Notes: a model not told the origin generated them from the sequence alone. A DNA stretch of 22,684 bases from Prevotella sp. (GCA_031285625.1 JAITVV010000041.1:1-22684); one strand, 5' to 3'; positions 4,583 through 20,706 are shown, counted from the stretch's first letter. Translations and numbers: made by a program.

Positions 4583-4597
4583 AATTTTGTATTATAA

Positions 4598-4618
4598 ATA
4601 TTTGTTATTAGCAAATTG
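4598..4618. promoter_or_regulatory. Putative MarR operator upstream of the reductase
   Basis: ATATTTGTTA-T-TAGCAAATTG is an imperfect palindrome matching the site at 4997-5017. Confidence 0.55.
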
Positions 4619-4631
4619 TTATTTAAATTTT

Positions 4632-4991
4632 TTATATAGTAATTTTTGTTAGTTCTTTAACTAGTTCGGATAGATTTAGTTCTTGTTTCATCATTTCCTT
4701 TATTTTCTGCGATCCGGCTTCTGTTAATGTAAAAATCATTTGACGTTTATCTACAGCACCCATTTCACGAATGATATATCCCTTTGTCTCAACTGTATTG
4801 ATAATACGTGAAACTCTGGAATTGGATAAACCGACAAAACCACACAATTCATTTGCAGATTTAGGTTTTCCATCTTTCATACAACAAAGAACCATACCTT
4901 CATTAATGGTAATTCCATTTTTTTCGGCAAATTCTTTTTCAAAATTATATAAAGATTTATATATATCTTTTAATTTACAGATCTCTTCCAT
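4632..4991 (-). CDS. MarR family transcriptional regulator
   Basis: wHTH (LSNSRVSRIINTVETKGYI) and DKR...LT..G wing. It has four Cys. Confidence 0.9.
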   Translation of the reverse strand: MEEICKLKDIYKSLYNFEKEFAEKNGITINEGMVLCCMKDGKPKSANELCGFVGLSNSRVSRIINTVETKGYIIREMGAVDKRQMIFTLTEAGSQKIKEMMKQELNLSELVKELTKITI

Positions 4992-4996
4992 TACAC

Positions 4997-5017
4997 ATAT
5001 TTGCTATTAGAAAATAT
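4997..5017. promoter_or_regulatory. Putative MarR autoregulatory operator
   Basis: ATATTTGCTA-T-TAGAAAATAT is a palindrome with one mismatch, immediately upstream of the marR start. Confidence 0.55.
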
Positions 5018-5101
5018 TCACAAAGAAAACTATTTATTTTTGATTTACAAAATAAAAACACGATTTATAATTTTATAATAAGAATTTATGATATATGTAG
5101 C

Positions 5102-5129
5102 TGATTTTTAAAAATCAAATTTATCTTTG
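5102..5129 (+). promoter_or_regulatory. Promoter of the histone H1-like gene with an adjacent perfect palindrome
   Basis: TATCTTTG at 5122-5129 fits TAnnTTTG. TGATTTTTAAAAATCA at 5102-5117 is a perfect 16-bp palindrome. Confidence 0.5.
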
Positions 5130-5156
5130 TGTCTTGATTTTTTAAAAATAAAAAGA

Positions 5157-5333
5157 ATGAAAAATTTAGTAGAAAAACTGAAAGAAGACTTCGAAGCATT
5201 CGCAAAGGATGCAGCATCACAAATTGAAAGCGGAAACAAAGCAGCAGGACAACGTGCACGTAAAGTATCGTTAGACATAGAGAAAGCTTTGAAAGAATTC
5301 AGAAAAGTATCTGTTGAAGCTTCAAAAAAATAA
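5157..5333 (+). CDS. Histone H1-like (Hc1 family) nucleoid protein
   Basis: GNKAAGQRARKVSL...KEFRKVS signature. ATG 5157 follows an A-rich leader. Confidence 0.88.
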   Translation: MKNLVEKLKEDFEAFAKDAASQIESGNKAAGQRARKVSLDIEKALKEFRKVSVEASKK

Positions 5334-5358
5334 TATTACTTACTATTTGTAATATTGT

Positions 5359-5390
5359 AAAGGATTATTCTGGTTGAATAATCCTTTTTT
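5359..5390 (+). terminator. Intrinsic terminator
   Basis: AAAGGATTATTC-tggtt-GAATAATCCTTT followed by a T-tract. Confidence 0.85.
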
Positions 5391-5495
5391 ATTGAATCTC
5401 CTCGCAGATTAATACGAACTTTTAATATTAGGATTAACGATATCAATTATTTTCTCTATTTTTAATCAGCTGAGAAGCAACATCTTGATTATTTT

Positions 5496-5625
5496 ATTAA
5501 AAAAATCTTCTCAAAGCTATTGCAGGATTCAAATCCTTATCCTATCTTTGCATCGCATTTGAGAGATAATGCAACCTCAAAAAAACGGTGTGGTAGTTCA
5601 GCTGGTTAGAATACCTGCCTGTCAC
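5496..5625 (+). repeat. attL direct repeat (tRNA promoter, leader and 5' half of tRNA-Asp)
   Basis: 130 bp matching 17221-17352 except one substitution (GCAACC/GCAGCC) and A7 versus A9. Contains the -7 box TATCTTTG at 5543-5550. Confidence 0.95.
5587..5625 (+). pseudogene. Truncated 5' half of tRNA-Asp(GTC)
   Basis: GGTGTGGTAGTTCAGCTGGTTAGAATACCTGCCTGTCAC, after which identity to the tRNA stops at the end of the anticodon loop. Confidence 0.92.
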
Positions 5626-5660
5626 AAAGTAACAAGTTTAAAATATAACTCAATATATCA

Positions 5661-5696
5661 AGCAATTACAGTAAAATGTAGTTGCTTTTTTCTTTT
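5661..5696 (+). terminator. Terminator just inside attL, overlapping an IHF-consensus site
   Basis: AGCAATTACA-gtaaaa-TGTAGTTGCT followed by a T-tract. TATCAAGCAATTA at 5656-5668 fits WATCAANNNNTTR. Confidence 0.7.
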
Positions 5697-5719
5697 GGTT
5701 AAGGTATTGGTTAAAACAA
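5696..5719 (+). repeat. Putative integrase arm-type sites, left end
   Basis: Tandem 12-mers TGGTTAAGGTAT and TGGTTAAAACAA. The same motif recurs at 16993-17016 and 17050-17061. Confidence 0.7.
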
Positions 5720-5804
5720 GTGTTTTTTACCATGATTGATTAATAATTTATTGTTAATTCACTCTGTAAAATATCCTAACATAATGGATAGGAAAGTTAT
5801 GTTA

Positions 5805-6413
5805 TTATAGTTTATTATTAAAATATAGATTTATGGAATCAAATAATATAAGGACTCCTTTATCTTCATCTATAGATTTTGCATATAGATATAATTCATT
5901 AAGAGTATTTGAAAAATTAAGATTTGGATTATTAAGAAATCTGTTTCTATTATTAGTAGTATGCTCTTTTATCATATCATAGTCATATTTAAAATTACTC
6001 CAAGTTAAATATTTCTCAAACTTTTCATGTAATTCTATAATCCAATCAATAGAAGTATTTACTATTAAATCCCAAGCTAATTTATCTTGATATTTTTCTA
6101 ATAATTCAGCATCCCAACATAATACAGACATATTGAGCCAAAGCATACCCCAATCCCATTTATCAGAGAATTTATTTATTAATTCTACAGACCACTTTAT
6201 ATGCTTATTTGAAGATACTTCTTTCCAATTTAAAACAGCTTCCCATTCTTCTAATAAATCTATATCAAATGGATAATAAAGAGAGAAATTTTTAACAGGT
6301 GATTGCACTCTGTATAACGTTTTTATCTTCTCTTGCATATCTATTCTAATATTATCTTCAAAACCTATTTGAACTATAGTTTTATCTTCTTTAGTGATTA
6401 CTTCTATTATCAT
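5805..6413 (-). CDS. Hypothetical protein with ~25-aa tryptophan repeats
   Basis: Repeating W..EL(I/L)EK(F/Y).DK.(D/A)W...(S).N units. Confidence 0.7.
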   Translation of the reverse strand: MIIEVITKEDKTIVQIGFEDNIRIDMQEKIKTLYRVQSPVKNFSLYYPFDIDLLEEWEAVLNWKEVSSNKHIKWSVELINKFSDKWDWGMLWLNMSVLCWDAELLEKYQDKLAWDLIVNTSIDWIIELHEKFEKYLTWSNFKYDYDMIKEHTTNNRNRFLNNPNLNFSNTLNELYLYAKSIDEDKGVLILFDSINLYFNNKL

Positions 6414-6420
6414 ATTTTTT

Positions 6421-6729
6421 TTAAGTTATAAAACTCATATTGTATTGGATTTTCTTTGATTTACATTTAGGGCAAAATAGTTTTTTTTCTCTTTCTAATA
6501 TACCTCCACAGCTACAATGTATTTGTTTATTATTATGCCAATCTTTGATTGATTGGAATTGTCCACATAATTGACATTGTAGCCCTGTTGTCGAGGTATT
6601 TAAACCATGAGTAAACGATACTATTTCTTTCTGATAGTTGCAGTCTAAGCATTGAATAATTCCTATACCTCCTATCTTCCAAAAATACAGATAGGTATCT
6701 TTTTCTGTAGTTTCTATTTGAGATTTCAT
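6421..6729 (-). CDS. Small multi-zinc-ribbon protein
   Basis: CLDC, CQLC, CSC and CPKC Cys pairs in 102 aa. Confidence 0.75.
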   Translation of the reverse strand: MKSQIETTEKDTYLYFWKIGGIGIIQCLDCNYQKEIVSFTHGLNTSTTGLQCQLCGQFQSIKDWHNNKQIHCSCGGILEREKKLFCPKCKSKKIQYNMSFIT

Positions 6730-6745
6730 TATTTACTTCAAGTAA

Positions 6746-7231
6746 TCATTTTATACGTACATAAGTGACAGAGTCGTTACTGATATTTGGAGTTGGTTGT
6801 ATCAATATCATTTTATTATTTTCTATAAAACCTTCATAGGTGTTTGAAGGAGTTTCATTTGTTGTAATTGATAGAGAAGAATAATTATTTTGATAATAAC
6901 TATATACTTTTTGTGTTGTATTTGTTATAACGAAAGAAACATTATCATTATAGCTATCTTTGGATTCCTCGATCTTTTCAAATAAAACATCTATATTATT
7001 CTGAAAAGTATATTTTATAGTTGTTCTACTCATATGATATTTTGTAATCCATACTTCTCGCCCATTTTCCCATTTATCAAAAACAGGATATGAAAAGGCA
7101 GAGCCAAATTGTGTTTGCCATGATGTACCAATTATATCGTATTTTATATCTTGGGTTTCTTCTTCATTTTTATCACATGAAGTAACAGAGATAAGATACA
7201 TTACTATTAAAATAATTTTTAGTGTTTTCAT
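6746..7231 (-). CDS. Hypothetical lipoprotein
   Basis: MKTLK-hydrophobic-TSC lipobox followed by acidic DKNEEE and a beta-rich body (IIGTSW). Confidence 0.75.
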   Translation of the reverse strand: MKTLKIILIVMYLISVTSCDKNEEETQDIKYDIIGTSWQTQFGSAFSYPVFDKWENGREVWITKYHMSRTTIKYTFQNNIDVLFEKIEESKDSYNDNVSFVITNTTQKVYSYYQNNYSSLSITTNETPSNTYEGFIENNKMILIQPTPNISNDSVTYVRIK

Positions 7232-7233
7232 TT

Positions 7234-7887
7234 TTAATTCATTATAGTGTATAAAATGTTAAATTTTCTAATTGCTGATATGTATTCTGATATATTCTGA
7301 ATAAATAGTGATTTATGAACATACAATTCATAAACTTGGAAGTCCTTACTTACCTTCTTGAAATCGTTTAAATCTAATCCTACTATAATTTTTTGAGGAT
7401 GCTCATTTAGAATAGATAGGAAATTATCACTATTAAATGGTATTATAACACTCATTGTATTAATAGCCTGAGTGTAGAATTTTCCTTCTTCAACCTTTTT
7501 TAACTCTGTTATTTGTAATTCTATAGTGTCTTTTCTTTTATCAGGACTTTTAGATTTATCAAAATTTATGACTAAAAAATCTTTTATCTTTTGAGTATCT
7601 GTATAGCAACTAAGATGTTTATATACAGTTATAATATTACCTTTAGGTAGCTCTTTGGTTTGCACCTCTCTAAAATCATCAAGATTGATAGGTATGTAAG
7701 AATTAACTAAACTCATTAAATCAAATAAGTTCTTTTCTGTTGAAGGATATACTAAGGTTATAGTTTCTGTTGATGAAAAATATGTGCTATTATTTTCTTC
7801 ATTTATAGGTGATACTTCAACAAATAAGACTTCACCTATCTCATTATCTGTTTTTCCATTAATATTCAATATTTTATATTTTTCCAT
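7234..7887 (-). CDS. Hypothetical protein with an apparent two-fold internal repeat
   Basis: 217-aa ORF. INLDDFREV...VYKHLS and LDLNDFKKV...YVHKS suggest duplicated domains. Confidence 0.7.
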   Translation of the reverse strand: MEKYKILNINGKTDNEIGEVLFVEVSPINEENNSTYFSSTETITLVYPSTEKNLFDLMSLVNSYIPINLDDFREVQTKELPKGNIITVYKHLSCYTDTQKIKDFLVINFDKSKSPDKRKDTIELQITELKKVEEGKFYTQAINTMSVIIPFNSDNFLSILNEHPQKIIVGLDLNDFKKVSKDFQVYELYVHKSLFIQNISEYISAIRKFNILYTIMN

Positions 7888-7952
7888 GAAATAAAATGTA
7901 TTAATTGCTTACTCTAAATCAGTTTTCAGCATCCCTGTTTTTATTTATATTG

Positions 7953-9284
7953 CTATAATATATCTTCCCAAAATTTCTGATCTTGTTGGTCTATATCAAG
8001 CCCTGAATTATAATATTCACTATCATAAATAGATTTATGTTCCTGATAATTATTACATTGTTTTTGAATAACTTTAGTATTATTCTCTTTTAATGATAAT
8101 ACTGCTCCATGATTAATTAGAAGCTTAATAATCTCAGTATTATTATCTTCATAAGCCTTATCTAAAACAGTTTTATCTTTATATCCATTATCATTTATAT
8201 CTAATCCATTTTCTATTAAAAGTGCTAACATTGAGGAAGATATATATCCATATGCTTTAAATAGTAAGGAAACAGTATAATAATAATGAGCATCATAATA
8301 TCTTGTTTCAGTATAGTTAGAACAATATTCATAATTATAATCTTCATGCTCATAACTCTCTAATTTCTCTTCATGTATTGATACAGTAAGTTTAGAGCCT
8401 TTTTGAATTAAGTAGTTGACAATATCTATATGGTTATTTTGAATTGCATATAGGAGTGCTGTATTTCCTTTTCTATCTTCTAAGTTTATGTATTCTTCTT
8501 CTCTAATATGGTTAGATATGAAGCTTCTTCTTATAGAAGTTGATTTATTATATTCCTCTTCACATACTTTATTATGCTCTACTAGTTTCTTAACTATATC
8601 TGTATAGCCCATTTTTGAAGCTATATGTAGTTCACAAGGATAACATTCTTCAAGGTATTGATAGCCATAATAAAGGTTAGAAAAATAGGAATGAGAGTAG
8701 CTTGTGCGTTTATGAAATATCAAGCCCCCTTCTTTATCATTATCTAGTAAGTAATCAATGATTTCTGTATACCTATTTTTAACAGCTTCATATAAAGCTC
8801 TAAACCATTCTTCCAAAGGAGTACAATATTGAATATTTTCAACATGAATAAGAAAAAACTTTAAGGCTTCTAAATTTCTTTTTTCAGAAGCATCTGATAG
8901 AGAGAAAATCCCTTGTTTCCTGTATTTTTCTAAAATATTATTCTCTGGTGCTTCATTTATCTGATAATCTTTATTTTCATCTATTTTGGCTTGAATTTCT
9001 TCTTTACTTAAAGTGTTTGGTTGAGTATTATTATCTAATATCGCACTTCTTATCTTTCTTTTTCTTATGGATGGGGGAATAGTAGGTTGAGGATTACTTA
9101 TTACACTATCACTATTAAATAATGAAGTTGCTTCTTCTACTATTTCTCCTACTTCTTCTGTTGTTTCTTCAGATATTACTTGAGCTTTATTAGAATCTAA
9201 TCTTTCTTGTTTTGCTTCATTTAAAGCTGTATTTCTACTAGGTCTTCTCTTTCTAGGAGAAGGTTCTTGAGGTTTTCTTCCCAT
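7953..9284 (-). CDS. Ankyrin repeat protein with a disordered basic N-terminus
   Basis: GNTALLYAIQNNHIDIVNYLIQKG, LHIASKMGYTDIVKKLVEH and TVLDKAYEDNNTEIIKLLINHGA. Confidence 0.85.
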   Translation of the reverse strand: MGRKPQEPSPRKRRPSRNTALNEAKQERLDSNKAQVISEETTEEVGEIVEEATSLFNSDSVISNPQPTIPPSIRKRKIRSAILDNNTQPNTLSKEEIQAKIDENKDYQINEAPENNILEKYRKQGIFSLSDASEKRNLEALKFFLIHVENIQYCTPLEEWFRALYEAVKNRYTEIIDYLLDNDKEGGLIFHKRTSYSHSYFSNLYYGYQYLEECYPCELHIASKMGYTDIVKKLVEHNKVCEEEYNKSTSIRRSFISNHIREEEYINLEDRKGNTALLYAIQNNHIDIVNYLIQKGSKLTVSIHEEKLESYEHEDYNYEYCSNYTETRYYDAHYYYTVSLLFKAYGYISSSMLALLIENGLDINDNGYKDKTVLDKAYEDNNTEIIKLLINHGAVLSLKENNTKVIQKQCNNYQEHKSIYDSEYYNSGLDIDQQDQKFWEDIL

Positions 9285-9310
9285 ATCAATACCTTTGTTG
9301 TTGAGGTATC

Positions 9311-9480
9311 AATAAAATAAAGTAGGCATGATACTATCCTTACTGCTATCAAGGTAGTCACCACAACACCCAGCCACAATAAGGAAGCTCATGCCTATAA
9401 CATGAACATCTACTTATTACTGTTGTGGCTAATTTAAAAGTGGTGAATTTTTGATAGCACTAGTAATAAAGCAATGCTTT
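9311..9480 (-). ncRNA. Putative structured leader/antisense RNA with alternative (terminator/antiterminator) pairings
   Basis: Nested stems 9344-9352/9451-9459, 9358-9364/9440-9446 and 9372-9379/9423-9430 compete with 9323-9331/9389-9397 and 9337-9345/9377-9385, which are followed by a U-rich tract on the minus strand. A TAnnTTTG box lies at 9542-9549 (-). Confidence 0.65.
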
Positions 9481-9697
9481 ATATTATGTATATCCTAATC
9501 TATTTTATCTCTCCATATTATTAATGATTAAATATTTATGACAAAAATAACTATTTTATCAAGAATAGAATCATTTAACAGAAGAAGATTAGACTATAAT
9601 ATTGGCATGAGCTCATAGCCCACTATCTTGATAGCAAATAAATAAAATATATGATTACAAAATAGAATACTACAAGGCTTGCAGTTCTTATATAGTT

Positions 9698-10978
9698 TTA
9701 AAATGGAAAGCTATCTTCTGTATCATCATCAGAAGCAATGTAGTTATAGTGTTTTTTATGTTTGATATATTCAAATGGAGTTTTGATTACATCTACTTTT
9801 ATTTCAACTTCTTCTAATGTGACTAGATTTCTGTCTAAGCTAATCTTTTTTGGAGTGGCTCTATTGCCCGTAATAAAATAGTTATCAGCAATAGCTTCAT
9901 CAAAATGCTTAATAAAGGCTTCTCTTATTCTGGAGCATTTCTCATTGATAGAATTTAATGTTGGATTAACAATATCATTGATGCTTTTCTCCATATCACC
10001 AATATTTTCTCTTCCTGATACTTTCTTATATATAGCAATTAGTTCATCTCTGTAGTCAGGTAAATTCTTAAATAATATTCCTTCTGGATGATTCAAAAAT
10101 AAGAAAAATACAGCTTTAGGAAGTGGATACATGGTTATTTCCAAATTATTATAGTCTGGTAGAATAATCTTATATTCATTAGTGATAATAAGCCTGCTTA
10201 ACTTCACTGAATCAATAGAAAATATGGATTTCAACACCATCTCATTGATACCTTTTTGCTTCAAAGCTGCAATACGTTCCTTAATTTCTTCTATTAGCTT
10301 TTGGGATTCAGAATCAAATTCATAGTCTGCATTGTCATCTGGATTTTCTATGTAAGGATAGGGAGGAGGGGAAGCACTGTATAATACATTGCCAGCACCA
10401 ACAGCACTTAAGTAAGCTCTGATCTGCTCCCATATTTCAGTTTTATCTAAATTGCTGAATTGATAATAGGAGAAGATATAGTAGTCATCTTCATTATCCT
10501 TATATCTTAACAAACCTCCTTCTAATGTAATAGCTACATCAGTGAAAGACATTGTTTTATCAATAATGTTCTGAGAAATTAAGCTGCTAGGTATAACATT
10601 CTTTTTATTTAATGTAGGATTTATATATTGGGCTTCTTCAATGCTTAAAGTCTTTATAAGTTTTGGTATATAAGTGAAATTATAACCTTTCTCTTCAAAT
10701 AAATTACATATCCCTTCATATTCCTTTGAGATAAAATTATTTAACTCCTCATTGAAATACTCTTCAAAATATATTACTTGTAGCTTATCTGGTATAAATG
10801 GAATATTTTTTTTGATTTTAATAATCAATGGTGGTTTTAAATACACTTTATCCATGAGATTTTTCTTTTCATCTAAAATACTGCTTTTTCTACAATAAGA
10901 AAATTTCCTAAGATAATGATATAAAAAATAGCACAGATACTTATTATAGTTTAGAAAGTACCTGTGCTGAAAACTCAT
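9698..10978 (-). CDS. Hypothetical protein with a C-terminal winged-helix-like domain (putative regulator)
   Basis: EITMYPLPKAVFFLFLNHPEGI...SINEKCSRIR...YFITG resembles an OmpR-type wHTH. Acidic tail DDDTEDSFPF. The start may be the downstream Met at 10855. Confidence 0.7.
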   Translation of the reverse strand: MSFQHRYFLNYNKYLCYFLYHYLRKFSYCRKSSILDEKKNLMDKVYLKPPLIIKIKKNIPFIPDKLQVIYFEEYFNEELNNFISKEYEGICNLFEEKGYNFTYIPKLIKTLSIEEAQYINPTLNKKNVIPSSLISQNIIDKTMSFTDVAITLEGGLLRYKDNEDDYYIFSYYQFSNLDKTEIWEQIRAYLSAVGAGNVLYSASPPPYPYIENPDDNADYEFDSESQKLIEEIKERIAALKQKGINEMVLKSIFSIDSVKLSRLIITNEYKIILPDYNNLEITMYPLPKAVFFLFLNHPEGILFKNLPDYRDELIAIYKKVSGRENIGDMEKSINDIVNPTLNSINEKCSRIREAFIKHFDEAIADNYFITGNRATPKKISLDRNLVTLEEVEIKVDVIKTPFEYIKHKKHYNYIASDDDTEDSFPF

Positions 10979-11378
10979 TTCTCTTTTACTTGTAATTTAG
11001 GACATTATAAGATGCAAAATTTAACAGAGAATTTTAGTTTATACTCTTCTGTTACATTTTTTGTCTTAGCTATTTTTATATAGAATGTCTAATTTCAGAT
11101 ACAAAAAAAAGTAATTATTATCACTCTTTCTTTCTGTTGGCTGGTTCATTGCATATCACATATAGGATAATATATCCTACAATAACTTTTAGCACTATTT
11201 CTAAAAATAATATCATAATGATTAAATAATTAAAGCCCCATCCATTACTGAATGAGGCTAATACAATAATAATAAAAAAGGTAATTAATATTCTTATAAA
11301 AGAAGAATATAAAGTTATCTCTCTTTATCTTTGACTTAAGCTCTTTGTTATATATAGATGTAAATGAGAAAGTTTTGA

Positions 11379-12233
11379 TTATTCTCCAATATATATTCTC
11401 CTAAATTTATTAAGACAATAATCTCTAGAATCTTCTATACTACAATCCTTAAATTTCCCAAATAATAGATACTCTAAAACTTCAAGATTATCATTATCTC
11501 TATAGTAATTACTAAAAGGGTTAGGATAAAAATTGAAATCTAAGATTTCAACATTTTCATATCTACTATCAAAGTTTATTGGAATTATTTCGTCTGCAAT
11601 AATCCATTCTATTCTTAAAAAGGAATGAATTATTGAACCAAACATGATAATTTTGTCTTTAAAATATAGAGGGATAGTAGCCCCATTTCCAAGTAAATCA
11701 GCAAATCTATCTGCTTTCAATAAATCTGTTACATCATTAGCAAAATGTATAATAGAATTTATTTGGAAAAATATCTGAAAGTTTTGAATATAATTCTCTC
11801 CTTTTATAAAAGATGATAAACTGCTTACATCAATCAATCTACAGCCTTTATCATCATGGCTCTTACAGCCTGCATGTTTTGCTATATATTTATAAAAATC
11901 TATTTTCTTCTGTTTCCATTTTGTACCATAAATATTCATGAAATCTATCTTGGAAGATGCTGCAATTTCATCATAACTATTTAGTACATAAGATAAGAAC
12001 TCATTGTAAGCATCATCAGCAGGTTTTGTTAATTCATTATTACAAAAATCACAAATTATTTGGGGGAATTTAAGCACTCTATCCTTTGAAGTATTTATTG
12101 AAGTGAGGCCACTTTCATTTATATAAAAACCATTGAATTTTTTACCTTTCATTAGTTTTCTTATTTCAGAAGCTTTAATTTTATGCTCTCCTGAATTAGC
12201 TTGATTCTCATTACATATCCAGCACTTTTGCAT
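11379..12233 (-). CDS. HNH-type nuclease domain protein
   Basis: N-terminal CWIC...EHKI...CDFCNN zinc-binding HNH pattern plus an unknown C-terminal domain. Confidence 0.7.
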   Translation of the reverse strand: MQKCWICNENQANSGEHKIKASEIRKLMKGKKFNGFYINESGLTSINTSKDRVLKFPQIICDFCNNELTKPADDAYNEFLSYVLNSYDEIAASSKIDFMNIYGTKWKQKKIDFYKYIAKHAGCKSHDDKGCRLIDVSSLSSFIKGENYIQNFQIFFQINSIIHFANDVTDLLKADRFADLLGNGATIPLYFKDKIIMFGSIIHSFLRIEWIIADEIIPINFDSRYENVEILDFNFYPNPFSNYYRDNDNLEVLEYLLFGKFKDCSIEDSRDYCLNKFRRIYIGE

Positions 12234-12297
12234 TTTCTAATTTATGTCTATAGTTAGATAAGGCTTCACTTGAAACCCTATCCAAATATAGAAAAAT

Positions 12298-13344
12298 TCA
12301 CTCAATAAACCACCTATACTCCTTATCTCCATGCAAAGCCTTATTAATGCCATGTACTAATTCAGTAGCATTTAAAGACCTGTCTAAGAAATTATCAATA
12401 TAACTACTCTTATTAGCCCCTGTAAACAAGTTATAAACATTCCACAGGCTGATAGAATTTGCTTCTCCAATACTGAAATTATCATCATTATAATAAGATT
12501 TAGCTACAGCATTTATATGAGTATCTGTAAATATCATTTCAGGTAATAACTTCTTCTCTTTTGGTGGTAAACATTGATACAGTTTTGATTTACCTATAAA
12601 TTGTGCAAACTGATGTTCTGTCATAGATGTATCTTTGAAAGAGTTCATCAAATGTAAGTGCCTTGCTGGGTTATAGAGTTGGATTAGTTCCATAACAGCT
12701 TTAAACAAGTCTGTTGCACTCATAATTTTAATCTCAGTCTTATAACCATCAGAAGATACACACATATTGCAACATACCAGATTCTTAAAGCCTATGAATA
12801 CTTTAAACTTCTCTGCTCCTTTCTTACTATACAGGTTCTCATGATTATAAGCTCTTACTCCTCCAATAGATAAATTAAGCCTGTTGCCCTCAATATCCTG
12901 ATAGATAGATGGTATTTCAAAACAGAAAGCCATCCTTTCATAATAAATAGTCTTATCACTCTCTAATAACTGATTGACTGGCTTATGTATTGCTTCTGAA
13001 ACTCTCCCTTTAATAACATGGGAAACTCTTATATCAGGCTCTAAAAACCTCTCATTAGGAAAGAATTTATTGGCTGCATTCCAGACTGTTTCTATAAAAT
13101 TGGAATGACTGATTGTTATTTCATTATCTTTAGAAAAGACAGGAACAACACATTCATTCTTTAAATGGAATAAGTCTGTTTCTTTGGTATTTGCTTCAAT
13201 AAAATGCTTTGCATTACTCCTCTCTAATGGTCTTTCTGATAGTGGGGTAATATCAATAATATTAGGGGTATATTCTGAATGATTATTTCTACTTTCAGGT
13301 AATATAATATTTGGTTTAATTTGTAATAGTTGCATTGTTTCCAT
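12298..13344 (-). CDS. DUF3871 family protein
   Basis: FIEANT...ECVVPVFSKDNE.TISH, YYERMAF, GGVRAYN and NLFTGANKSSYID match this Bacteroidetes family as I recall it. Confidence 0.85.
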   Translation of the reverse strand: METMQLLQIKPNIILPESRNNHSEYTPNIIDITPLSERPLERSNAKHFIEANTKETDLFHLKNECVVPVFSKDNEITISHSNFIETVWNAANKFFPNERFLEPDIRVSHVIKGRVSEAIHKPVNQLLESDKTIYYERMAFCFEIPSIYQDIEGNRLNLSIGGVRAYNHENLYSKKGAEKFKVFIGFKNLVCCNMCVSSDGYKTEIKIMSATDLFKAVMELIQLYNPARHLHLMNSFKDTSMTEHQFAQFIGKSKLYQCLPPKEKKLLPEMIFTDTHINAVAKSYYNDDNFSIGEANSISLWNVYNLFTGANKSSYIDNFLDRSLNATELVHGINKALHGDKEYRWFIE

Positions 13345-13450
13345 ACTTAAATTATGTTTGATAAATTAATAATAGATTGGTTTTTCTTAAAATTTGAATA
13401 GCTATTTATCTTAAATTCATATCATAACTATTTTGTATTTAAAAGGCAGT

Positions 13451-13486
13451 AAAAAAACAGGTAAGGAATATTTAAACTCCTTACCC
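13451..13486 (-). terminator. Intrinsic terminator after the 90-aa gene
   Basis: Minus strand GGTAAGGA...TCCTTACC stem followed by T7. Confidence 0.75.
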
Positions 13487-13508
13487 TTAAATATTAAAGT
13501 ATTGTATT

Positions 13509-13781
13509 TTATAATTTAGCTAAGGTTGTAGCTCCTGATGTTTCTCCTCTTTGATGCAGTAAGAAAAACATTTCTCCTGTCATTGGTACACATACTTGAG
13601 ATATAACAGGCATGGTTACTTCTCCTGTAATAACTCTTTTGGAACAAGCCCCTGTTTCTACTCCATAGGTAAAGAAGCATTTACCTGTAGATTCATTCCT
13701 TTTAATTTCAATCTCATGTACTTGTTGATTGTTTTTGAAGTCATTTACTGACCATGTTTGTAAGAATTTTAGATTTTCCAT
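13509..13781 (-). CDS. Small hypothetical protein (beta-rich, possibly OB-fold/SSB-like)
   Basis: 90-aa ORF with an A-rich leader and its own terminator. The fold is only inferred. Confidence 0.75.
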   Translation of the reverse strand: MENLKFLQTWSVNDFKNNQQVHEIEIKRNESTGKCFFTYGVETGACSKRVITGEVTMPVISQVCVPMTGEMFFLLHQRGETSGATTLAKL

Positions 13782-13811
13782 ATCACTTATTTTTTATATT
13801 AATATTTCAAC

Positions 13812-14013
13812 ATAGGGGGATTAACCCAATTTCCAAGTGACAGGCGGTGTTAAGTTATGATTATCTCACTCTTAAATACATATCTTGTTACACTCTAGCA
13901 GCAGCAGAAGAAAAAAGATAAAATAGTTATGTTATTTTATTGCTTCTGGTGGTGGGGTATTGGATTTATTAATAAAAAGGTAGGGGGATGTATAATCTCA
14001 CTTAAGCACATAT
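13812..14013. repeat. Structured intergenic region (candidate origin or ncRNA)
   Basis: Two TAGGGGGAT copies (13813, 13981), two ATWATCTCACT..TAA..ACATAT copies (13860, 13992) and a central hairpin at ~13904-13948. Confidence 0.55.
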
Positions 14014-14017
14014 AAAC

Positions 14018-14053
14018 AAAAAGCTAACAGGGGATTAATTTTTCTGTTAGCTT
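14018..14053 (-). terminator. Intrinsic terminator after the polymerase-like gene
   Basis: AAGCTAACAG...CTGTTAGCTT stem with a T-tract on the minus strand. Confidence 0.75.
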
Positions 14054-14074
14054 AAAATTGCAATCGTATGAATA

Positions 14075-15670
14075 CTATAACTTCATTAAAGCTTCTTTAT
14101 AATTCCAGTAATCAGTTTCTAATTTTGGAGGCACTCCAATAGTATTAGTTAATTCTTCTTCCATTATATTTTTAACAAAATTGAGATTCTCTACTGTAGT
14201 AACTATTGAGTCATGTATAGTAAATATAGGAATTTCCTGATTGCCTTCTTCCCAAACTCTTTTGCAGCATCTATGTAATACAATCTCACTTTCTATAGAT
14301 TGCAGTAAGCAAGCCAATGTTGCATGGTCTGTTGATTTTATTAATCTAAATACTTCATATACATTTGGGTGTATTTTAGAGAACATTTTTTTATGCTTAT
14401 ACATAGGCTGATTCAGATACTGATTTTTAGAAAAAAACACTTCAAACATCATATCTTTTACCTTTTGTCTGTCTATTTCTCTCCCTGATTCTTTTTTGAT
14501 TTGATCAATCATATATTCATAAAAATTTCCTTCTGAGACTTTTCTTTTATATGAGTTAATCTCCTGTGTATTTGTTATGTTATTTGTATAATCTTTTAAT
14601 ATTTTGTGTAATGGTGTGTTGTTAATAATTGTATTATTTATAAGTGTTTGAATGTTGGTTGGTAGATGAGTATAATTAAATTGAGTTGAAGTATTATCCC
14701 AAAATTGAGGGCTAAATAATATACAGGCTAGGTATGGTTGGCTATTTTTTATATCTAAATTTACTAGCCTTCTTCCTTCAAAAGTGATGAAATTTCTATA
14801 TACACTTTCCATGTTAGTCATTGCAGAGTGTAACCTGTGAACATTTGTATCTATCTTAGCATTATAATCATGTGTAGATAAAGAGTACAAATTGAATTGA
14901 ATAGCTCTTTTTTGAGTTTTGGGATGAATCTTATCTCCTTTCTTAGTCTTACTATTTTTCCATGTATTATATCCATCTTTAATTTTCTTCTCTGTGTAAT
15001 CGGATGCAAATTTTAAGGCTTTGTTAATATCAATATTTAACCCTTTCTGGGCATACCAATATCTTAAATAAGGATAGTTCAATAGAGGGTTATCAATTTC
15101 TATCCCTTCATCATTAAATATGCTGCTAGGAATAGTTTCTGTTTCTTTATTTATATGCCCTTTATATAGAATTATTTTAAGGGGTACATCTGCATACTTT
15201 TCTGTAAATCTATACCCATAAGATTTTTCATTTTTAATATAATGATTATCACACTCAATTACACCAGTATCAATTAAATAATCAAGATAATTTTTATAAT
15301 CTTTGAGAATAAAATCTCTAATTAGAGTTGAGTTAATTGGGACATAATCATCCTCAAAAATATTATTTTTATTATGGGCTGGAATAATAGTAATTAGGCT
15401 AATTACATACAAGAGCCTGTCTTTATCATAATAAATATTACTGCCTTTAGCCTTTAATTTACCATTATCAGACAAATAAAATCTATAATTAACAAGAGGG
15501 TATTTTTCTATATGCTCATCTATATCTAAATTTTCTGGAATAAAAGCCGATTTACCACTATGTTTAAATGCAACAACATTAAAAATGCCAAAAAACTTAA
15601 ATCTTTTATTGTCAGATATATTATCATTATCTTTTCCAAATAAATTCTTTAAATAATTAAATATACTCAT
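14075..15670 (-). CDS. Minimal family-A-like (TV-Pol-like) polymerase with an N-terminal wHTH-like region
   Basis: Collinear PolA motifs: HRLHS (GRLSS), motif A LDIKNSQP, motif B R.KVK.MMF..FF, LQSIESEI (IQGTAADI) and motif C TIHDSI. No exonuclease motifs recognised. Confidence 0.72.
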   Translation of the reverse strand: MSIFNYLKNLFGKDNDNISDNKRFKFFGIFNVVAFKHSGKSAFIPENLDIDEHIEKYPLVNYRFYLSDNGKLKAKGSNIYYDKDRLLYVISLITIIPAHNKNNIFEDDYVPINSTLIRDFILKDYKNYLDYLIDTGVIECDNHYIKNEKSYGYRFTEKYADVPLKIILYKGHINKETETIPSSIFNDEGIEIDNPLLNYPYLRYWYAQKGLNIDINKALKFASDYTEKKIKDGYNTWKNSKTKKGDKIHPKTQKRAIQFNLYSLSTHDYNAKIDTNVHRLHSAMTNMESVYRNFITFEGRRLVNLDIKNSQPYLACILFSPQFWDNTSTQFNYTHLPTNIQTLINNTIINNTPLHKILKDYTNNITNTQEINSYKRKVSEGNFYEYMIDQIKKESGREIDRQKVKDMMFEVFFSKNQYLNQPMYKHKKMFSKIHPNVYEVFRLIKSTDHATLACLLQSIESEIVLHRCCKRVWEEGNQEIPIFTIHDSIVTTVENLNFVKNIMEEELTNTIGVPPKLETDYWNYKEALMKL

Positions 15671-15764
15671 CTGTTAATTCATTATGTTAGGATATTTATA
15701 TTATGGTAAAATTAAGAAAAAGAACACATATAAAAATGTATTCTTTCCCTTAATTATCTCACAT

Positions 15765-16973
15765 TTATAGCAGGTACTTCATAGCTTCATCAATCTGACT
15801 ATTTTCAAAGCTATCTAAATATATCTGAGTGGTCTTTAAATCTGAATGCCCTAGAGTTTCTCCAATTAAGGCAATATTTACACCAGAGTTCTTTAATACT
15901 GTTGCATAACTATGTCTTGAAACATAGGTAGTGAGATTAACCTCAATACCTGTCATCTGTGATATTTTCTTTAAATACCTGTTCACTTTCAATATGACTT
16001 TCTTCTTCCTGTTATATTGCTGCATCTTGGTTTTATGTATAGTGTGATCCAGTATAGGAAAGATATATTCATTATTAGAATCAATATACATCTTCATTAT
16101 CTCTTTGGCTTCATCACAGATAGGTACATTTATTTTTCTGTGTGTTTTCTGCCTAATATACATAAGTCTGTCATTAGTTATATTATTGTGCTTCAAATTA
16201 GCCATATCAGAGAAACTAATACCACTGCATAAGTAGCTAAACACAAATAAATCTCTGCTGAGTTGGATATATTCCTTTTCTTTAGATAGGTCAAGATTCA
16301 TAATGAGCTTTACATTGTCTTTTGAGATAGCTCTTTTCTCAGTTCTTATGCTGAATTTGGAGATTTTGAAGTCATTGAAAGGGTATGTATCTCTTTTAGC
16401 ATATCTTCTCTCTATAGCCTTGTTATAGGTACTTCTCAGAGTTCTAAAAAATAGATTCATGGAGCTATCCTTACAATTTCTACTTCTTAACCACTTCTCA
16501 TAACCTAGCAAAAAGTTCATATCAATATCAGAGAAGGGAATATCTAATTTGCTCTTATAATAGGCTTCTAATGATCTCAGGGAGTCTTTATATACTCTTG
16601 AATTACCTATTTTATCAGATTGTTCCATTTCTTTTATTAGTTCTGTATAGAACTCATTTACACTCTTTAGCCTATGCTTTTCTTTGGGCTTAATTAATGT
16701 TGAGGCTGTAAATTCCTTCTCTTCTGCTTTTAGTTCTAATATCTTCTTTTGAAGCTCTGCTTTTCTATCAATGATTATCTTTTCAATATAATCTCTGTTA
16801 GGACAATTTGTTTTAGGCTGATTCTTGCTAAAATCCCAAAATGTCGGATTTATGGATATGCCTAAACTTTTGTACCTAGTTTTTCTGTCCTTACATATTC
16901 TAATCATTATAGGACTTTCTCCATTTGATAACTTTTTCCCTCTAAAACAAATTACATTTACTGTTGTACTCAT
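15765..16973 (-). CDS. int: Tyrosine integrase, Bacteroidetes IntDOT-like
   Basis: Arm-binding N-terminus (NGESPIMIRI...YKSLG), SAM-like domain and catalytic GISFSD / RQKT / YVSRHSYA / LGHSDLKTTQIY. Adjacent to attR. Confidence 0.95.
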   Translation of the reverse strand: MSTTVNVICFRGKKLSNGESPIMIRICKDRKTRYKSLGISINPTFWDFSKNQPKTNCPNRDYIEKIIIDRKAELQKKILELKAEEKEFTASTLIKPKEKHRLKSVNEFYTELIKEMEQSDKIGNSRVYKDSLRSLEAYYKSKLDIPFSDIDMNFLLGYEKWLRSRNCKDSSMNLFFRTLRSTYNKAIERRYAKRDTYPFNDFKISKFSIRTEKRAISKDNVKLIMNLDLSKEKEYIQLSRDLFVFSYLCSGISFSDMANLKHNNITNDRLMYIRQKTHRKINVPICDEAKEIMKMYIDSNNEYIFPILDHTIHKTKMQQYNRKKKVILKVNRYLKKISQMTGIEVNLTTYVSRHSYATVLKNSGVNIALIGETLGHSDLKTTQIYLDSFENSQIDEAMKYLL

Positions 16974-16992
16974 GATTCATTTAGTTGAATCA

Positions 16993-17061
16993 TGGTTAAA
17001 ACACTGGTTAAAACAAAACACTTCAAACCCTTTATTCAAGCCATTTTCATGGTTCAAACAT
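16993..17061 (+). repeat. Putative integrase arm-type sites, right end
   Basis: TGGTTAAAACAC TGGTTAAAACAA (16993-17016) and TGGTTCAAACAT (17050-17061), in the same orientation as the left-end copies. Confidence 0.7.
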
Positions 17062-17220
17062 TTTACTGAAAAATCAATGCAATTTTCCTGCAATTTTAAT
17101 ATTGAAATGATAAACTTTTAATTTTACTGACTAAGACAAGTTATTCAAACTCCTTTTCTACAAAAGATTCTCTAAAGACTGTATTTTTACCACTCTGATA
17201 AACAACTATTTGCAAAATAC

Positions 17221-17352
17221 ATTAAAAAAATCTTCTCAAAGCTATTGCAGGATTCAAATCCTTATCCTATCTTTGCATCGCATTTGAGAGATAATGCAGC
17301 CTCAAAAAAAAACGGTGTGGTAGTTCAGCTGGTTAGAATACCTGCCTGTCAC
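17221..17352 (+). repeat. attR direct repeat (replacement tRNA promoter and 5' half)
   Basis: Near-identical to 5496-5625. The -7 box TATCTTTG is at 17268-17275. Confidence 0.95.
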
Positions 17353-17390
17353 GCAGGGGGTCGCGGGTTCGAGTCCCGTCCATACCGCCA
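17314..17390 (+). tRNA. trnD: tRNA-Asp(GTC)
   Basis: 77 nt. Acceptor GGTGTGG/CCATACC, anticodon stem CCTGC-CTGTCAC-GCAGG, T loop GTTCGAGTC and encoded CCA. Confidence 0.98.
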
Positions 17391-17395
17391 ATATT

Positions 17396-17436
17396 AAAAA
17401 CAACTCGTTGAAAATCAATGAGTTGTTTTTGCTTTT
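17396..17436 (+). terminator. Terminator after the tRNA containing an IHF-consensus site
   Basis: AAAAACAACTC..TTGA-aaa-TCAA..GAGTTGTTTTT hairpin. AATCAATGAGTTG at 17413-17425 fits WATCAANNNNTTR. Confidence 0.8.
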
Positions 17437-17444
17437 AGATGGGT

Positions 17445-17466
17445 TGTGTTGCATCTGTGTTGCACT
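17445..17466 (+). repeat. Putative arm-type sites of element 2
   Basis: Tandem TGTGTTGCATC TGTGTTGCACT. Confidence 0.55.
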
Positions 17467-17533
17467 TCTGAAAAAATATCGGTTTTGGGGGAATGAAAAT
17501 AACTATTGGGAAATAGTAGAAAATAAGGGAAAG

Positions 17534-18547
17534 TTATTTATATTCTCGCTGTAAATATTTCTCCACATAACGGCGAATAAAATGTTTAATATCTTTACTA
17601 AACATATACATCTCTTCTGATTTTCCAAATATTTCCCTATATATAGGGTGATCAAGCATTTTCAAAGTATTTTCAAAATTTTCCAATGACATCAACTTCT
17701 CAGTTTTAGTTTTAGATGATTTAAGTACTTTATATGTATCGAGTCCAATTTCATATATCCAAGGGAAATCATCTTTTAATAAGCTTATTATCATTAAAAA
17801 AGTTAAACTCGGATTTTCAAACTTCATTTCCATATGTATTATTTCTTCCAGCATCATAGGATGAAATTTTCTACGCCTTCTTATTTCAGGGTCATATAGC
17901 CTACTTTCAATTCGGGAAGGCAGAGCATCGATTTTGGATTTTAGTTCTTCAACAGTTTTAGATGACTGTATCCCCTTATCTATGTTTGAAACTGTAATTC
18001 TTAAATCAGAAATAGCTTCAACAATATCAGCCAAAGACCGTTCCTCAGCATCACCACTTTCCTTTAGCACTTTCAGGTCTAATGATACTGAAATAGGATT
18101 ATGAATTTCATTACTACCTGTTTCAATAGATTTTACTTGTGAGGCAATTTCTTCTTTTGCTGCCGCAACGCTATCTAAGTTGTGAAGATCAAATTGTATT
18201 ATTCTTGTTGCCGCGACATCAAAAGGGATGGCATCACCTTTTCTTATCATTTGGACAAGAGGTTTTCTTACCGCGTGTCTAACAGCTAATTCATAAAACA
18301 CATTTGGATTTCGTTCTGTTAAATCAGCAACAACAAGTTCCGCACTCACTATATATTCAATAATCTGTGTAGTAATAATGCCTGGTTCAGATATTTTATC
18401 AGCTCTAATCACTTCATATCCTAATTGTTTTACAGGTTCAGTAATTATGTGTTTTAATATCTGGTCGGAGCGTTCTCTTGTCTCGGAACCTTCCTCTCCT
18501 ATTGGAGATATAACAAAACAAATTTTCTTATCTTCTTTTTTAGCCAT
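17534..18547 (-). CDS. Nucleoside 2-deoxyribosyltransferase-like (TIR/NDT fold) domain protein with coiled coil and unknown C-terminal domain
   Basis: CFVISPIG...RAD...VVADLTERNPNVFYELAVRHA..KP...PFD pattern. Confidence 0.8.
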   Translation of the reverse strand: MAKKEDKKICFVISPIGEEGSETRERSDQILKHIITEPVKQLGYEVIRADKISEPGIITTQIIEYIVSAELVVADLTERNPNVFYELAVRHAVRKPLVQMIRKGDAIPFDVAATRIIQFDLHNLDSVAAAKEEIASQVKSIETGSNEIHNPISVSLDLKVLKESGDAEERSLADIVEAISDLRITVSNIDKGIQSSKTVEELKSKIDALPSRIESRLYDPEIRRRRKFHPMMLEEIIHMEMKFENPSLTFLMIISLLKDDFPWIYEIGLDTYKVLKSSKTKTEKLMSLENFENTLKMLDHPIYREIFGKSEEMYMFSKDIKHFIRRYVEKYLQREYK

Positions 18548-18566
18548 TGTTATTCAAATTATTAAT

Positions 18567-19443
18567 TCAAATTTTATCAAACCATTCAGGGTTTATCGTA
18601 ATCTCCTCGATCAATTCTGTTTTAACTCCAAGATTAAATTCTTTGAGTTTTTCACAAAGCAAATCTCCATCAATTAAATCAATCGGAGGTGCACCATCTC
18701 TTGACGCTTCCTTTATTGCATCACGTGTGAACTTTCCGGTAGTTATAAATATACCTTTGTCTGCACGCCCCCTGCATAGCACCTCTGAAATCTCGAATAT
18801 ATCCTGATGAAACAGAATCTTTAAACCTTTTACATTGAAAGAAAACATGAAAACTTAGAAAACCATTCAGTCTAACAATTCCTTTGCCATCAATGCCTCC
18901 ATCTCCAGATTTTCCCGTTACTTCAACTTGTACGAATCCACTTTCTCTTAAAATTCTCTGACTAAGCCTTTCAAAAGCAGAAGGATCTATATTTTGAATA
19001 ACTTTAAGAAGTTTATCTTTCCAATCTAATTTATCGGTTTCATTTTCGATAACTACTTCTAAGTTTTTACTCTGTATACCATTTTCTTCATTCGACAGAT
19101 AATTTTCAGTTCTAACAGTTTTAACAATATCATTAGAGCTAAAAGAATCTGGATTTATATCATTATCAATTAAAGCCCAAACAGCCCTTGATGAGTTTTC
19201 AACCAATCTATATTTTTTAAGATACGTTCTAGCCCATGCCAAACGATAATCAATCTCACTTTGTATACCGTCTTCTTTATGGGGAATGTTCAAAATATCC
19301 TCACTTATACTAGCTATTTGATAAACCTTTTCATTAATCTCTTCTATAGTACCAGAGCCATCTAGCTGTTTTAATGCTTTTAAAGTAGGGATAAGTAACT
19401 TGTCATAAGTTGGTACTTGATTGTGTATTTTCTTTTTTCCCAT
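18567..19443 (-). pseudogene. mrr: Mrr family type IV restriction endonuclease, +1 frameshift
   Basis: Mrr_N (YRLAWARTYLK) and Mrr_cat (SGDGGIDG...QCKR...FITT..F...IDLIDG) are split over two ORFs. Removing one G from the G5 run (18768-18772) restores AMQGRADKGIFITT and a 291-aa protein. Confidence 0.9.
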
Positions 19444-19515
19444 GTACTTGTATGTAAGATTTAAATTTCAGGCAATTTACGAATAAATTACTATAATTCT
19501 TTCTATTTTTGTTTT

Positions 19516-20265: not shown

Positions 20266-20286
20266 AATCAAAATATAAGAATTGAT

Positions 20287-20685
20287 ATGGAGATAAGAGA
20301 TTGGGTAACGATAGTCTCGGTTATAGCTATAGCTACTGGTTGGTTTATTAACAGTTGGCTTAATAGACGAAATGAGATAGCTAAAGAACGTCTTAAATAT
20401 AGAATGGACACATTAAAGTCAATTGTTATATTAAAGTCACAGATTGTCGAGGCATTACGTTTAGCATCTAATGATTTATCTTATAATTCATCTCATTTAA
20501 GTAAATTGACATATGATACAGTTGACCTAATCAATATATATGGAGAGAATGATGAAATAGAACTATGTGAGAAATTTATTCTTGCTCTTAATAACAGAGA
20601 TTATATTGCTTCTGAAGAAATTCTAAACAAATTCATTCATGTTGCTAGAGTAAAAATAAGAAAAGAATTAAAACTCTTAAGATAA
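20287..20685 (+). CDS. Hypothetical protein with an N-terminal membrane anchor
   Basis: Hydrophobic WVTIVSVIAIATGWFINSWL followed by a helical domain. Confidence 0.75.
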   Translation: MEIRDWVTIVSVIAIATGWFINSWLNRRNEIAKERLKYRMDTLKSIVILKSQIVEALRLASNDLSYNSSHLSKLTYDTVDLINIYGENDEIELCEKFILALNNRDYIASEEILNKFIHVARVKIRKELKLLR

Positions 20686-20706
20686 TAAAAGTTCATTGAT
20701 ATACAT

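Follow-up and report, generated by a model that had tools for sequence, protein, structure and literature searches.

The window analysed here is a stretch of 22,684 nucleotides (nt) from Prevotella sp. (GCA_031285625.1 JAITVV010000041.1), which is the entire contig C85 of a 4.84-Mb assembly (96 contigs, 37% G+C; genome G000 below). The host is read as a Dysgonomonas-like member of the Bacteroidales from a termite gut, in line with the source label of run X1 and with the names of homologues of the 531-aa element protein described below. An element with a tyrosine integrase gene occupies 11.6 kb of the window, bracketed on the left by a displaced copy of the promoter, leader and first 39 nt of tRNA-Asp(GTC) and on the right by the intact gene. 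The best explanation of this arrangement, and a highly probable one, is that the element integrated at tRNA-Asp(GTC) and restored the gene with an element-borne promoter and 5' half. It is built on the observed anatomy of the locus, an empty site, a conserved element-borne segment, and the distribution of the layout in the integrase family. The intact tRNA-Asp would accordingly be a chimera, with nt 1 to about 32-39 derived from the element and the remainder from the host. Comparisons were made with 61 related genomes (G numbers, with contigs C and loci L) and with public sequencing runs (X numbers).

The direct repeat, the tRNA-Asp gene and the empty site

5496-5625, + strand: left attachment site (attL), with the displaced promoter, leader and tRNA nt 1-39 (tRNA nt 1 at 5587; box at 5543-5550; loop copy at 5619-5625)
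17221-17352, + strand: repeat at the right attachment site (attR), with promoter (box at 17268-17275), leader and tRNA nt 1-39 (anticodon loop at 17346-17352)
17314-17390, + strand: intact tRNA-Asp(GTC) (ARAGORN, Rfam)
17395-17431, + strand: terminator-like hairpin behind tRNA-Asp (terminator scan)

The tRNA-Asp(GTC) gene at 17314-17390 (+) is the sole tRNA found in the window by ARAGORN and scores 66.1 bits with Rfam, which at gathering threshold finds nothing besides it over the whole window; over 4950-5800 there is no Rfam match at E up to 1. The front of the gene belongs to a direct repeat that pairs 5496-5625 with 17221-17352 (97.7% over 132 columns in BLAST, one mismatch and one gap), and a repeat search of the window returns a perfect 47-nt repeat (5579-5625 and 17306-17352) plus the adjoining 132-nt repeat. 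By alignment, the copies differ by a single-nucleotide polymorphism (SNP), A at 5574 and G at 17299, and by a run of A7 versus A9 right before tRNA nt 1. The left copy contains 91 bp of upstream DNA (91-93 bp across both copies) and tRNA nt 1-39, and it stops at CTGTCAC, the 7-nt anticodon loop (nt 33-39), on the last base of the loop. The duplication had been described in the initial annotation, made from the sequence alone: about 91 bp of upstream DNA with a promoter box and tRNA nt 1-39, an end exactly at the anticodon loop, one SNP and one homopolymer difference. BLAST, the repeat search and the alignment agree with that description, and one correction is added to the extent: the right edge is sharp, as stated, but the left edge is fuzzy, since a weaker resemblance extends for another 42 nt or so upstream (88.5% over 174 columns in all).

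Both the intact tRNA-Asp and the displaced nt 1-39 (5587-5625) are on the + strand and bracket the element, with a spacing between repeats of 11725-11727 nt. A 130-bp repeat at 98% identity within 22.7 kb is far beyond chance, and by BLAST the repeat sequence has no other place in the assembly. Each copy carries a TATCTTTG box (5543-5550 and 17268-17275) with TTG 20 nt upstream of it. Promoters of Bacteroidetes follow a -33/-7 pattern with consensus TAnnTTTG / TTTG, which the box and its upstream TTG fit; TAnnTTTG is a term in use for Bacteroides promoters. A second tRNA-Asp gene is located on contig C80 of the same genome, so that the cell is not dependent on the occupied locus alone.

Four public runs were compared with window positions 3000-20000 in the form of contigs, which cannot reveal rare forms. 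In one of the four (X8, from another study), a 3249-bp contig covers 5176-5578 with three other letters and then 17305-17388 with none, giving a joint from 5578 to 17305 that skips 11726 nt and has 84 letters on its shorter side. This contig is an empty site, with a single leader and a single tRNA-Asp behind the same left flank, which is 98-99% identical to that of the window; that flank is accordingly native, and without the element the locus holds a single tRNA-Asp. Past 17388 the X8 contig is unlike the window, so that the second mobile element lying directly downstream of tRNA-Asp in the window (E2) is also absent there.

The other three runs have no usable joint, and the lack of cover over most of the element in X7 and X2 is not evidence of absence and was not used. 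An X2 contig over 5625/5626 has only 29 letters on one side and was not counted as bridging. Two further X2 contigs (ant metagenome; 17182-17271) bridge the junction at 17220/17221 between the integrase-side arm of the element and the leader, with three other letters each; X2 covers the left flank at about 97% identity and, being metagenomic, could represent another organism, and it may hold a related element at the same site.

The initial annotation had named as a refuting case two tandem tRNA-Asp genes, the left one simply disrupted. Tandem full tRNA-Asp genes with similar leaders do exist (G031:C4), and paired matches in G015, G020 and G002 suggest more of them, so an ordinary insertion could be imagined that broke the upstream member of such a pair, each with its own leader, and restored nothing. 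This is scarcely credible here: the X8 contig has the left flank, one leader and one tRNA with exactly 11726 nt skipped, the right end of the element holds no remnant of tRNA nt 40-77, and in four species the conserved integrase-side arm passes without a break into the leader.

Alternatively, an assembler could have used the 130-bp repeat to fuse an empty chromosomal site wrongly with a circular, unintegrated element. In run X1, the probable source of the assembly, the unitigs (Logan) break at the repeat, so that short reads alone cannot span it, and depth is equal (~44) on flanks and element and roughly doubled in the repeat bins. The copies differ (A with A7 versus G with A9), so that an assembler can phase them, and the same integrated layout has been assembled in G007 and G013 and, at tRNA-Ser, in G031, G017 and G016. 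A misjoin therefore has a very slight chance, and even a misjoined attachment site on the free element (attP) would still have the promoter and 5' half. That the repeat is an artefact of this contig alone does not hold, as the tRNA-Asp layout is found on single contigs of two other species.

Genes, ends and proposed integration route of the element

5626-5768, + strand: element left end, P' arm of attP, conserved in sister elements
5660-5697, + strand: terminator-like hairpin (5660-5687) and T-run (terminator scan, fold)
5696-5718, + strand: candidate arm-type integrase sites of the P' arm, TGGTTAAGGTA then TGGTTAAAACA
5805-6413, 6421-6729, 6746-7231, 7234-7887, 7953-9284 (ankyrin repeats) and 9698-10978, - strand: cargo genes, within 5805-11000 (open reading frames, library searches)
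11379-12233, - strand: 284-aa protein without assignment
12298-13344, - strand: DUF3871 protein (E 3e-148)
13509-13781, - strand: 90-aa protein
14075-15670, - strand: 531-aa protein, no Pfam match (fold search)
15765-16973, - strand: tyrosine integrase, 402 aa, divergent from the tRNA (Pfam domains, PHROG, PDB)
16993-17060, + strand: candidate arm-type sites in the P arm, TGGTTAAAACA (16993, 17005 and, with one mismatch, 17050)

The DNA between the repeat copies has 25-30% G+C, compared with 34-40% in the left flank, and its 11 open reading frames (ORFs) are all on the minus strand. The integrase gene lies 341 bp from the intact tRNA-Asp and is transcribed away from it. Its product has the domains Arm-DNA-bind_5 (8e-23), Phage_int_SAM_5 (2e-20) and Phage_integrase (5e-20), the three-domain composition of Bacteroidota arm-binding tyrosine integrases, and is also assigned to a PHROG integrase family and matched by PDB sequences of XerC/XerD/HP1-type recombinases.

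The left end of the element is shared with its relatives: the distal end of the G007 element is 87% identical to 5492-5768, and in G013 the corresponding end is 83% identical to 5458-5755. A terminator scan of 5000-6000 gives two sites against 0.2 expected, and the hairpin at 5660, which is also present in the predicted fold, begins 35 nt past the truncated tRNA; its sequence is conserved at attL of G007 and G013. The TGGTTAAAACA motif has four matches in the window, all of them at the ends of the element; chance would give 1.06, and none of 100 shuffles attains four. At the same positions G007 and G013 have tandem TGGTT motifs, and where the variable half of the motif differs it does so in the two arms alike, which is the behaviour expected of arm-type integrase sites; the tandem TGGTT-type motifs are, from this pattern, likely arm sites for the N-terminal arm-binding domain of the integrase.

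Given these parts, the tyrosine integrase would recombine attP with the anticodon loop of tRNA-Asp(GTC). The predicted attP would run from the integrase start through tandem arm sites, about 200 bp, promoter, leader (~40 nt) and tRNA nt 1-32 to the overlap CTGTCAC, and continue with 34 nt, the terminator-like hairpin and tandem arm sites; it would be the mirror of the usual tRNA piece, bringing promoter, leader and nt 1-39 rather than the 3' part. The host site (attB) would be the anticodon stem-loop of tRNA-Asp, the stem arms serving as inverted core sites. Integration would shift the host's promoter and leader, along with its 5' half, to attL, 11.7 kb upstream, placing them before the element hairpin at 5660-5697, which would stop transcripts from the displaced promoter, and at attR would join the element promoter and 5' half to the host 3' half. 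Excision would restore the host gene. The long homology would also permit exchange between copies, by gene conversion or by recombination in the repeat, and such exchange would explain perfect identity near the crossover and its decay upstream.

Library searches give no family match for five of the six cargo genes, and among all 11 element proteins there are five that none of four libraries matches. PHROGs match three proteins (the integrase and two families of unassigned function) and identify no phage structural gene; with no capsid, tail, terminase or lysis gene found, the element is not classed as a prophage, and with no relaxase family among the 11 proteins in the library searches it is not classed as an NBU-type mobilizable element. 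Inside the element PADLOC finds nothing convincing, only a match of the ankyrin-repeat protein to PDC-M72A. In tblastn searches the DUF3871 protein is 69-77% identical in the elements of G007, G013 and G016:C8, and the 90-aa protein 64-67% identical in those of G013 and G016:C8; by this comparison the two genes are backbone common to related elements.

The 531-aa protein belongs to no Pfam, PHROG or NCBIfam family and has at least 487 homologues in Bacteroidales, some of which UniRef names DNA-directed RNA polymerase. Homologues at 40-45% identity are found beside the integrase in three tRNA-Ser elements. Its AlphaFold model has a mean confidence (pLDDT) of 87.8, and the best Foldseek matches are Pol I chains (E 6e-6), with a template-modelling (TM) score of only about 0.3; a PDB sequence search gives nothing (best E 0.67). 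The modelled fold resembles family-A DNA polymerases, making the protein a probable replication enzyme of the element, and it may represent an undescribed compact polymerase of small integrative elements. An invariant H-D-S motif is found near its C-terminus.

Sister elements, the integrase family and exchange between leader copies

Integrases 87% (G027), 86% (G013) and 81% (G007) identical to that of the window adjoin tRNA-Asp in the same divergent layout. The DNA at 15777-17393 (integrase, spacer, leader, tRNA) aligns contiguously to the elements of G013 (78.5%) and G027 (85%). In G007 and G013 the same contig also has a displaced 5' copy, at a distance of 11.9 kb and 14.5 kb respectively, with the element end equivalent to 5626-5768 conserved directly past it in both; in G027 the contig stops short of the element's distal end. 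By alignment, then, integrase, spacer, leader and tRNA 5' half are one conserved element block in four species. Together with the empty site and the tRNA-Ser promoters considered below, this block supports the proposal of the initial annotation that the element carries a replacement promoter and 5' half.

A match without an integrase nearby is found in G024:C14 (L030), where 49 bp at about 5650-5700 (82%) correspond to the integrase-side arm (window ~17060-17108) and lie about 200 bp upstream of tRNA-Asp (5894-5968 of that contig); either an element was lost there and left this relic, or the lineage of the G000 and G027 elements once copied the stretch from host DNA. The leader of tRNA-Val(TAC) in G000 (C79 5621-5772, L088) is about 73% identical to the tRNA-Asp leader, and in G010:C91 (L034; contig of 2.6 kb) an integrase 64% identical to that of the window lies on the 5' side of tRNA-Val.

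The wider family comprises 35 integrase loci from the 61 genomes, of which 28 can be classified by layout and seven cannot (contig ends or no tRNA). Sixteen of the 28 are co-directional with the tRNA on its 3' side, and 12 are on the 5' side, with the 5' end of the tRNA facing the integrase start: Asp (four), Val(TAC), Arg(TCT), Ser(GGA) (five) and Tyr(GTA). In a quick maximum-likelihood tree of 34 integrases, one being left out for an internal stop, the four Asp loci group with Val and Arg(TCT) (Shimodaira-Hasegawa-like approximate likelihood ratio test, SH-aLRT, 98) and the five Ser(GGA) loci with Tyr (100), the latter clade with one 3'-side Ser locus inside; the tree needs at least three changes of orientation. 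A repeat of the 5' fragment was verified at six of the 12 loci, namely Asp in G000, G007 and G013 and Ser in G031:C4 (98 bp, -58 to +40), G017:C2 (40 bp, +1 to +40) and G016:C8 (48 bp, -4 to +43). All six end within nt 39-43: at nt 39 in the three Asp elements and at 40, 40 and 43 in the three Ser elements.

Among five 3'-side loci checked, the tRNA-Met repeat (G026:C9) extends from nt 32, the first loop base, to +2, and is thus the mirror image of the 5'-side repeats; two tRNA-Phe loci have repeats of nt 20-74, the tRNA-Gly locus repeats the whole gene, and at tRNA-Arg(ACG) there is no repeat within 12 kb. Three loci have repeats of a whole tRNA gene: tRNA-Gly (L064 and L065, G031:C11; 76 bp, 100%, copies 20.5 kb apart), tRNA-Thr (L103, G388:C30; -1 to 75, 93.5%, 8.7 kb apart) and tRNA-Thr (L101, G284:C4; 1 to 117, 94%, 10.4 kb apart), where the integrase is divergent from the adjacent copy. 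Elements carrying a whole tRNA gene could, judged from these repeats, be intermediates for a flip of orientation. In an order-wide sample of 401 genomes, 10, including that of the window, have an integrase match at E 1e-90 or better; the 11 other loci in this sample are on the 3' side (eight), divergent with a whole-tRNA repeat (one, the tRNA-Thr of G284) or without a tRNA (two). One further search of genome contigs for integrase loci gives a single locus, in a Paludibacter metagenome-assembled genome, on the 3' side of tRNA-Phe.

Two tRNA-Ser elements allow the copies to be told apart. In G017:C2 and G016:C8 a separate TATCTTTG box precedes the intact tRNA-Ser, in upstream DNA that hardly differs between the two elements. 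This DNA does not resemble the host upstream regions left at attL, which are similar to one another and lead into a host gene. Sequence comparison thus marks the copy before the intact tRNA-Ser in both as unmistakably the element's and, the repeats being short, places the crossover in these elements within tRNA nt 1-43.

These elements bear on a different reading of the window, according to which strands were exchanged at the upstream end of the repeat or in the leader, the intact tRNA keeps its host promoter and the attL copy is that of the element. Recombination anywhere in an identical repeat yields the same product, one integrated copy cannot place the crossover, and in G013 the two copies are identical. 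This reading is nonetheless improbable: identity ends sharply at the anticodon loop in six of six verified elements at two tRNAs, with a fuzzy upstream edge; the repeats of G017:C2 (+1 to +40) and G016:C8 (-4 to +43) leave an element-type promoter before the intact gene; and the G allele of the SNP is common to the attR copies of G000 and G027. The A allele is found at attL of G000, in G004 and G017, and at attL of G007, and on this pattern the attL copy, with A at 5574, is read as the host's original.

Identity between the copies decays with distance upstream from the loop, beside which it is highest, in all three genomes (G000, G007 and G013). Host-type leader copies of the same type differ from each other at 3-14 of about 93 columns across the genus; the leader being so conserved, 98% identity in G000 is not diagnostic alone. 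The G013 element copy is identical to its host's over 189 nt, non-conserved DNA included, and differs at 25-27 of 103 columns from the copies of other elements, so that the element-borne copy tracks the leader type of the host and not the integrase tree. From these comparisons, exchange of sequence between element-borne and host copies is real; it would reflect repeated exchange in the long homology, by gene conversion or occasional homologous excision, on top of selection for the promoter. The claim of the initial annotation that near identity implies recent capture or gene conversion from this host lineage is therefore upheld as to exchange, by G013, and not as to the 98% itself, in view of the genus-wide range.

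Several points weigh against restoration of tRNA-Asp from its 5' side as described. The placing of the crossover inside the anticodon loop comes from where identity ends and from analogy, and transcription from the element-borne promoter is deduced from sequence features. The SNP argument rests on G000 and G027 only, since the two G013 copies are identical and the G007 element copy is set apart from its own host's by 15 of 93 columns, against 10-11 for the copies of other species, a pattern to be expected of an element that arrived recently. Two loci with the 5'-side layout (G005:C8 and G003:C1) have no repeat within 20 kb, and for four of the 12 the contig is too short to extend to a distal repeat. 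The contigs of the runs, X1 included, show neither an excised circle nor an attP junction.

That last result and the lack of a recognised excisionase-like gene among the 11 ORFs also raise the possibility of a fossil, integrated as described, no longer able to excise and leaving tRNA-Asp permanently on element-derived DNA; the G024 arm match could be such a relic. This is unlikely, though well worth keeping in mind: the integrase ORF is intact, both arms are present with their motifs, and a strain almost the same as this one (left flank about 98-99% identical) lacks the element at this site, a sign that it was gained or lost recently. An element that is still mobile would be consistent with these features.

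A broader, distinctly speculative proposal joins these results: Bacteroidales clades of one integrase family with a polymerase-encoding backbone would have switched to the 5' side of tRNA genes, taking over their promoters, by way of whole-tRNA-repeat (Gly, Thr) intermediates. If so, recombination in the repeat would keep the element-borne promoter in step with that of the host, or an element-specific promoter would take its place; while integrated, the element could set expression of a host tRNA; and the terminated transcript of leader and 5' tRNA half at attL might act as a small RNA.

Related systems and neighbouring DNA

Use of the 5' side of tRNA genes is already known and rare. Zhao and Williams reportedly described, in 2002, an integrative element using the 5' part of a tRNA gene and so bringing the upstream part of the gene, as a single element in another phylum; the present case differs in being a family on several tRNAs, with element-type promoters and exchange with the host copy. 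Sublocation classes for integrase crossover, the anticodon loop among them, are said to have been distinguished by Williams in 2002; in the window the identity block is bounded by the 7-nt loop, on either side of which lies the symmetric stem. Bacteroides NBU1 and NBU2 are small Bacteroidota islands with the integrase beside a tRNA gene, on its 3' side. The 3'-side relatives found here (tRNA-Met in G026:C9, tRNA-Phe in G022 and G026, tRNA-Thr in G165 and G205) likewise have their integrases, 45-57% identical, by the tRNA, but their tRNA and integrase are co-directional and the duplicated piece is the 3' part.

The Islander description of a tDNA island is matched by the window, which has an intact tDNA with a same-orientation fragment, an internal tyrosine integrase, a size within 2-200 kb and an unoccupied site. 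In Table 1 of that work, 159 of 3919 tDNA islands have a 5' fragment and 3760 a 3' fragment, in agreement with the statement of the initial annotation that most tRNA-targeting elements duplicate the 3' part, and 2083 of the 3919 have an anticodon-centred attP (Hudson, Lau and Williams 2015, PMC4383910). The 5'-fragment islands are the minority class there, and their description is that of the present element: an intact tDNA, a displaced same-orientation 5' part upstream, a 5' part carried by the element, an integrase and, as proposed here, an anticodon-centred crossover. Krupovic et al. (2019, PMC6563490) describe 5'-distal recombination as "considerably less frequent" than 3'-distal, citing Zhao and Williams 2002 and archaeal cases; these are 5'-distal as here, with archaeal hosts and other integrase types, and the passage concerned is silent on promoters. 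The 10K island of Riemerella anatipestifer (PMC6764341), for which integrase-dependent integration and excision are reported, resembles the present element in size (~10 kb) and in its tyrosine integrase by a tRNA, but its 53-bp repeat is downstream of tRNA-Arg, on the 3' side, where no promoter is needed.

The element is therefore a further case of a rare mode, less unusual than the initial annotation held; a limited literature search found no paper describing 5'-side tRNA use in Bacteroidales, although island databases may list cases. Added here are the empty site, the arm-site and terminator anatomy, the element-type tRNA-Ser promoters, the clade-level 5' orientation and the leader exchange. 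The window thus gives a clean, well-bounded case of 5'-side tRNA integration together with its empty site, and within one Bacteroidales integrase family the 5' orientation is no isolated event but is passed on within clades. A 5'-side element must bring a working promoter, and both outcomes occur here, a near-host copy or a promoter of its own. The case opens no new kind of biology; it is useful for island-finding software, which often seeks 3' fragments, and for integration vectors based on int/attP in Bacteroidales, and it bears on how integrases change target orientation.

5127-5387, + strand: small lysine-rich protein gene and terminator-like hairpin (5359-5387); probable ATG at 5157, stop at 5333
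17444-22684, + strand, continuing into C22 1-14500 (L087): second mobile element E2, unrelated, directly downstream

The left flank is ordinary chromosome, with genes for a rhodanese, DsbA, a CoA-disulfide-reductase fusion, MarR and a small lysine-rich protein. In this species the last gene naturally lies next to tRNA-Asp on its upstream side, and it has its own TATCTTTG box and terminator; its product may be a histone-H1-like nucleoid protein. Its DNA occurs at several places per genome in most relatives (75-84%) and at one in G000. The many matches of 5100-5337 in relatives had made a repeat or small RNA a candidate for this interval, which was rejected, as it is the small lysine-rich protein gene and single-copy DNA in G000.

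Mobile DNA is located on both sides of tRNA-Asp. E2, about 20 kb long, encodes a TIR-like/PHROG 3634 protein, a split Mrr, HTH_17, VapE, primase and Mob_Pre proteins, followed by a set of extracytoplasmic function (ECF) sigma factor, FecR and TonB receptor, Dcm with Vsr and, at its far end, an integrase. An imperfect repeat of 21 nt is found at 17444-17464 and again at C22:14471-14491. Insertion of E2 in tRNA-Asp is not supported, as no displaced 3' fragment of at least 20 nt is found elsewhere in the assembly. E2 is 99% identical to the DNA behind tRNA-Asp in G004 (G004:C5), whose core genes are only 73% identical. The terminator region of tRNA-Asp between them is about 96% identical in G000 and G004 (L025), and its hairpin at 17395-17431 differs by two changes that keep the stem pairing. 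Within E2, the Mrr-type restriction endonuclease gene at 18567-19443 (-) is in two overlapping ORFs of 240 aa and 93 aa, a split that is probably due to a frameshift.

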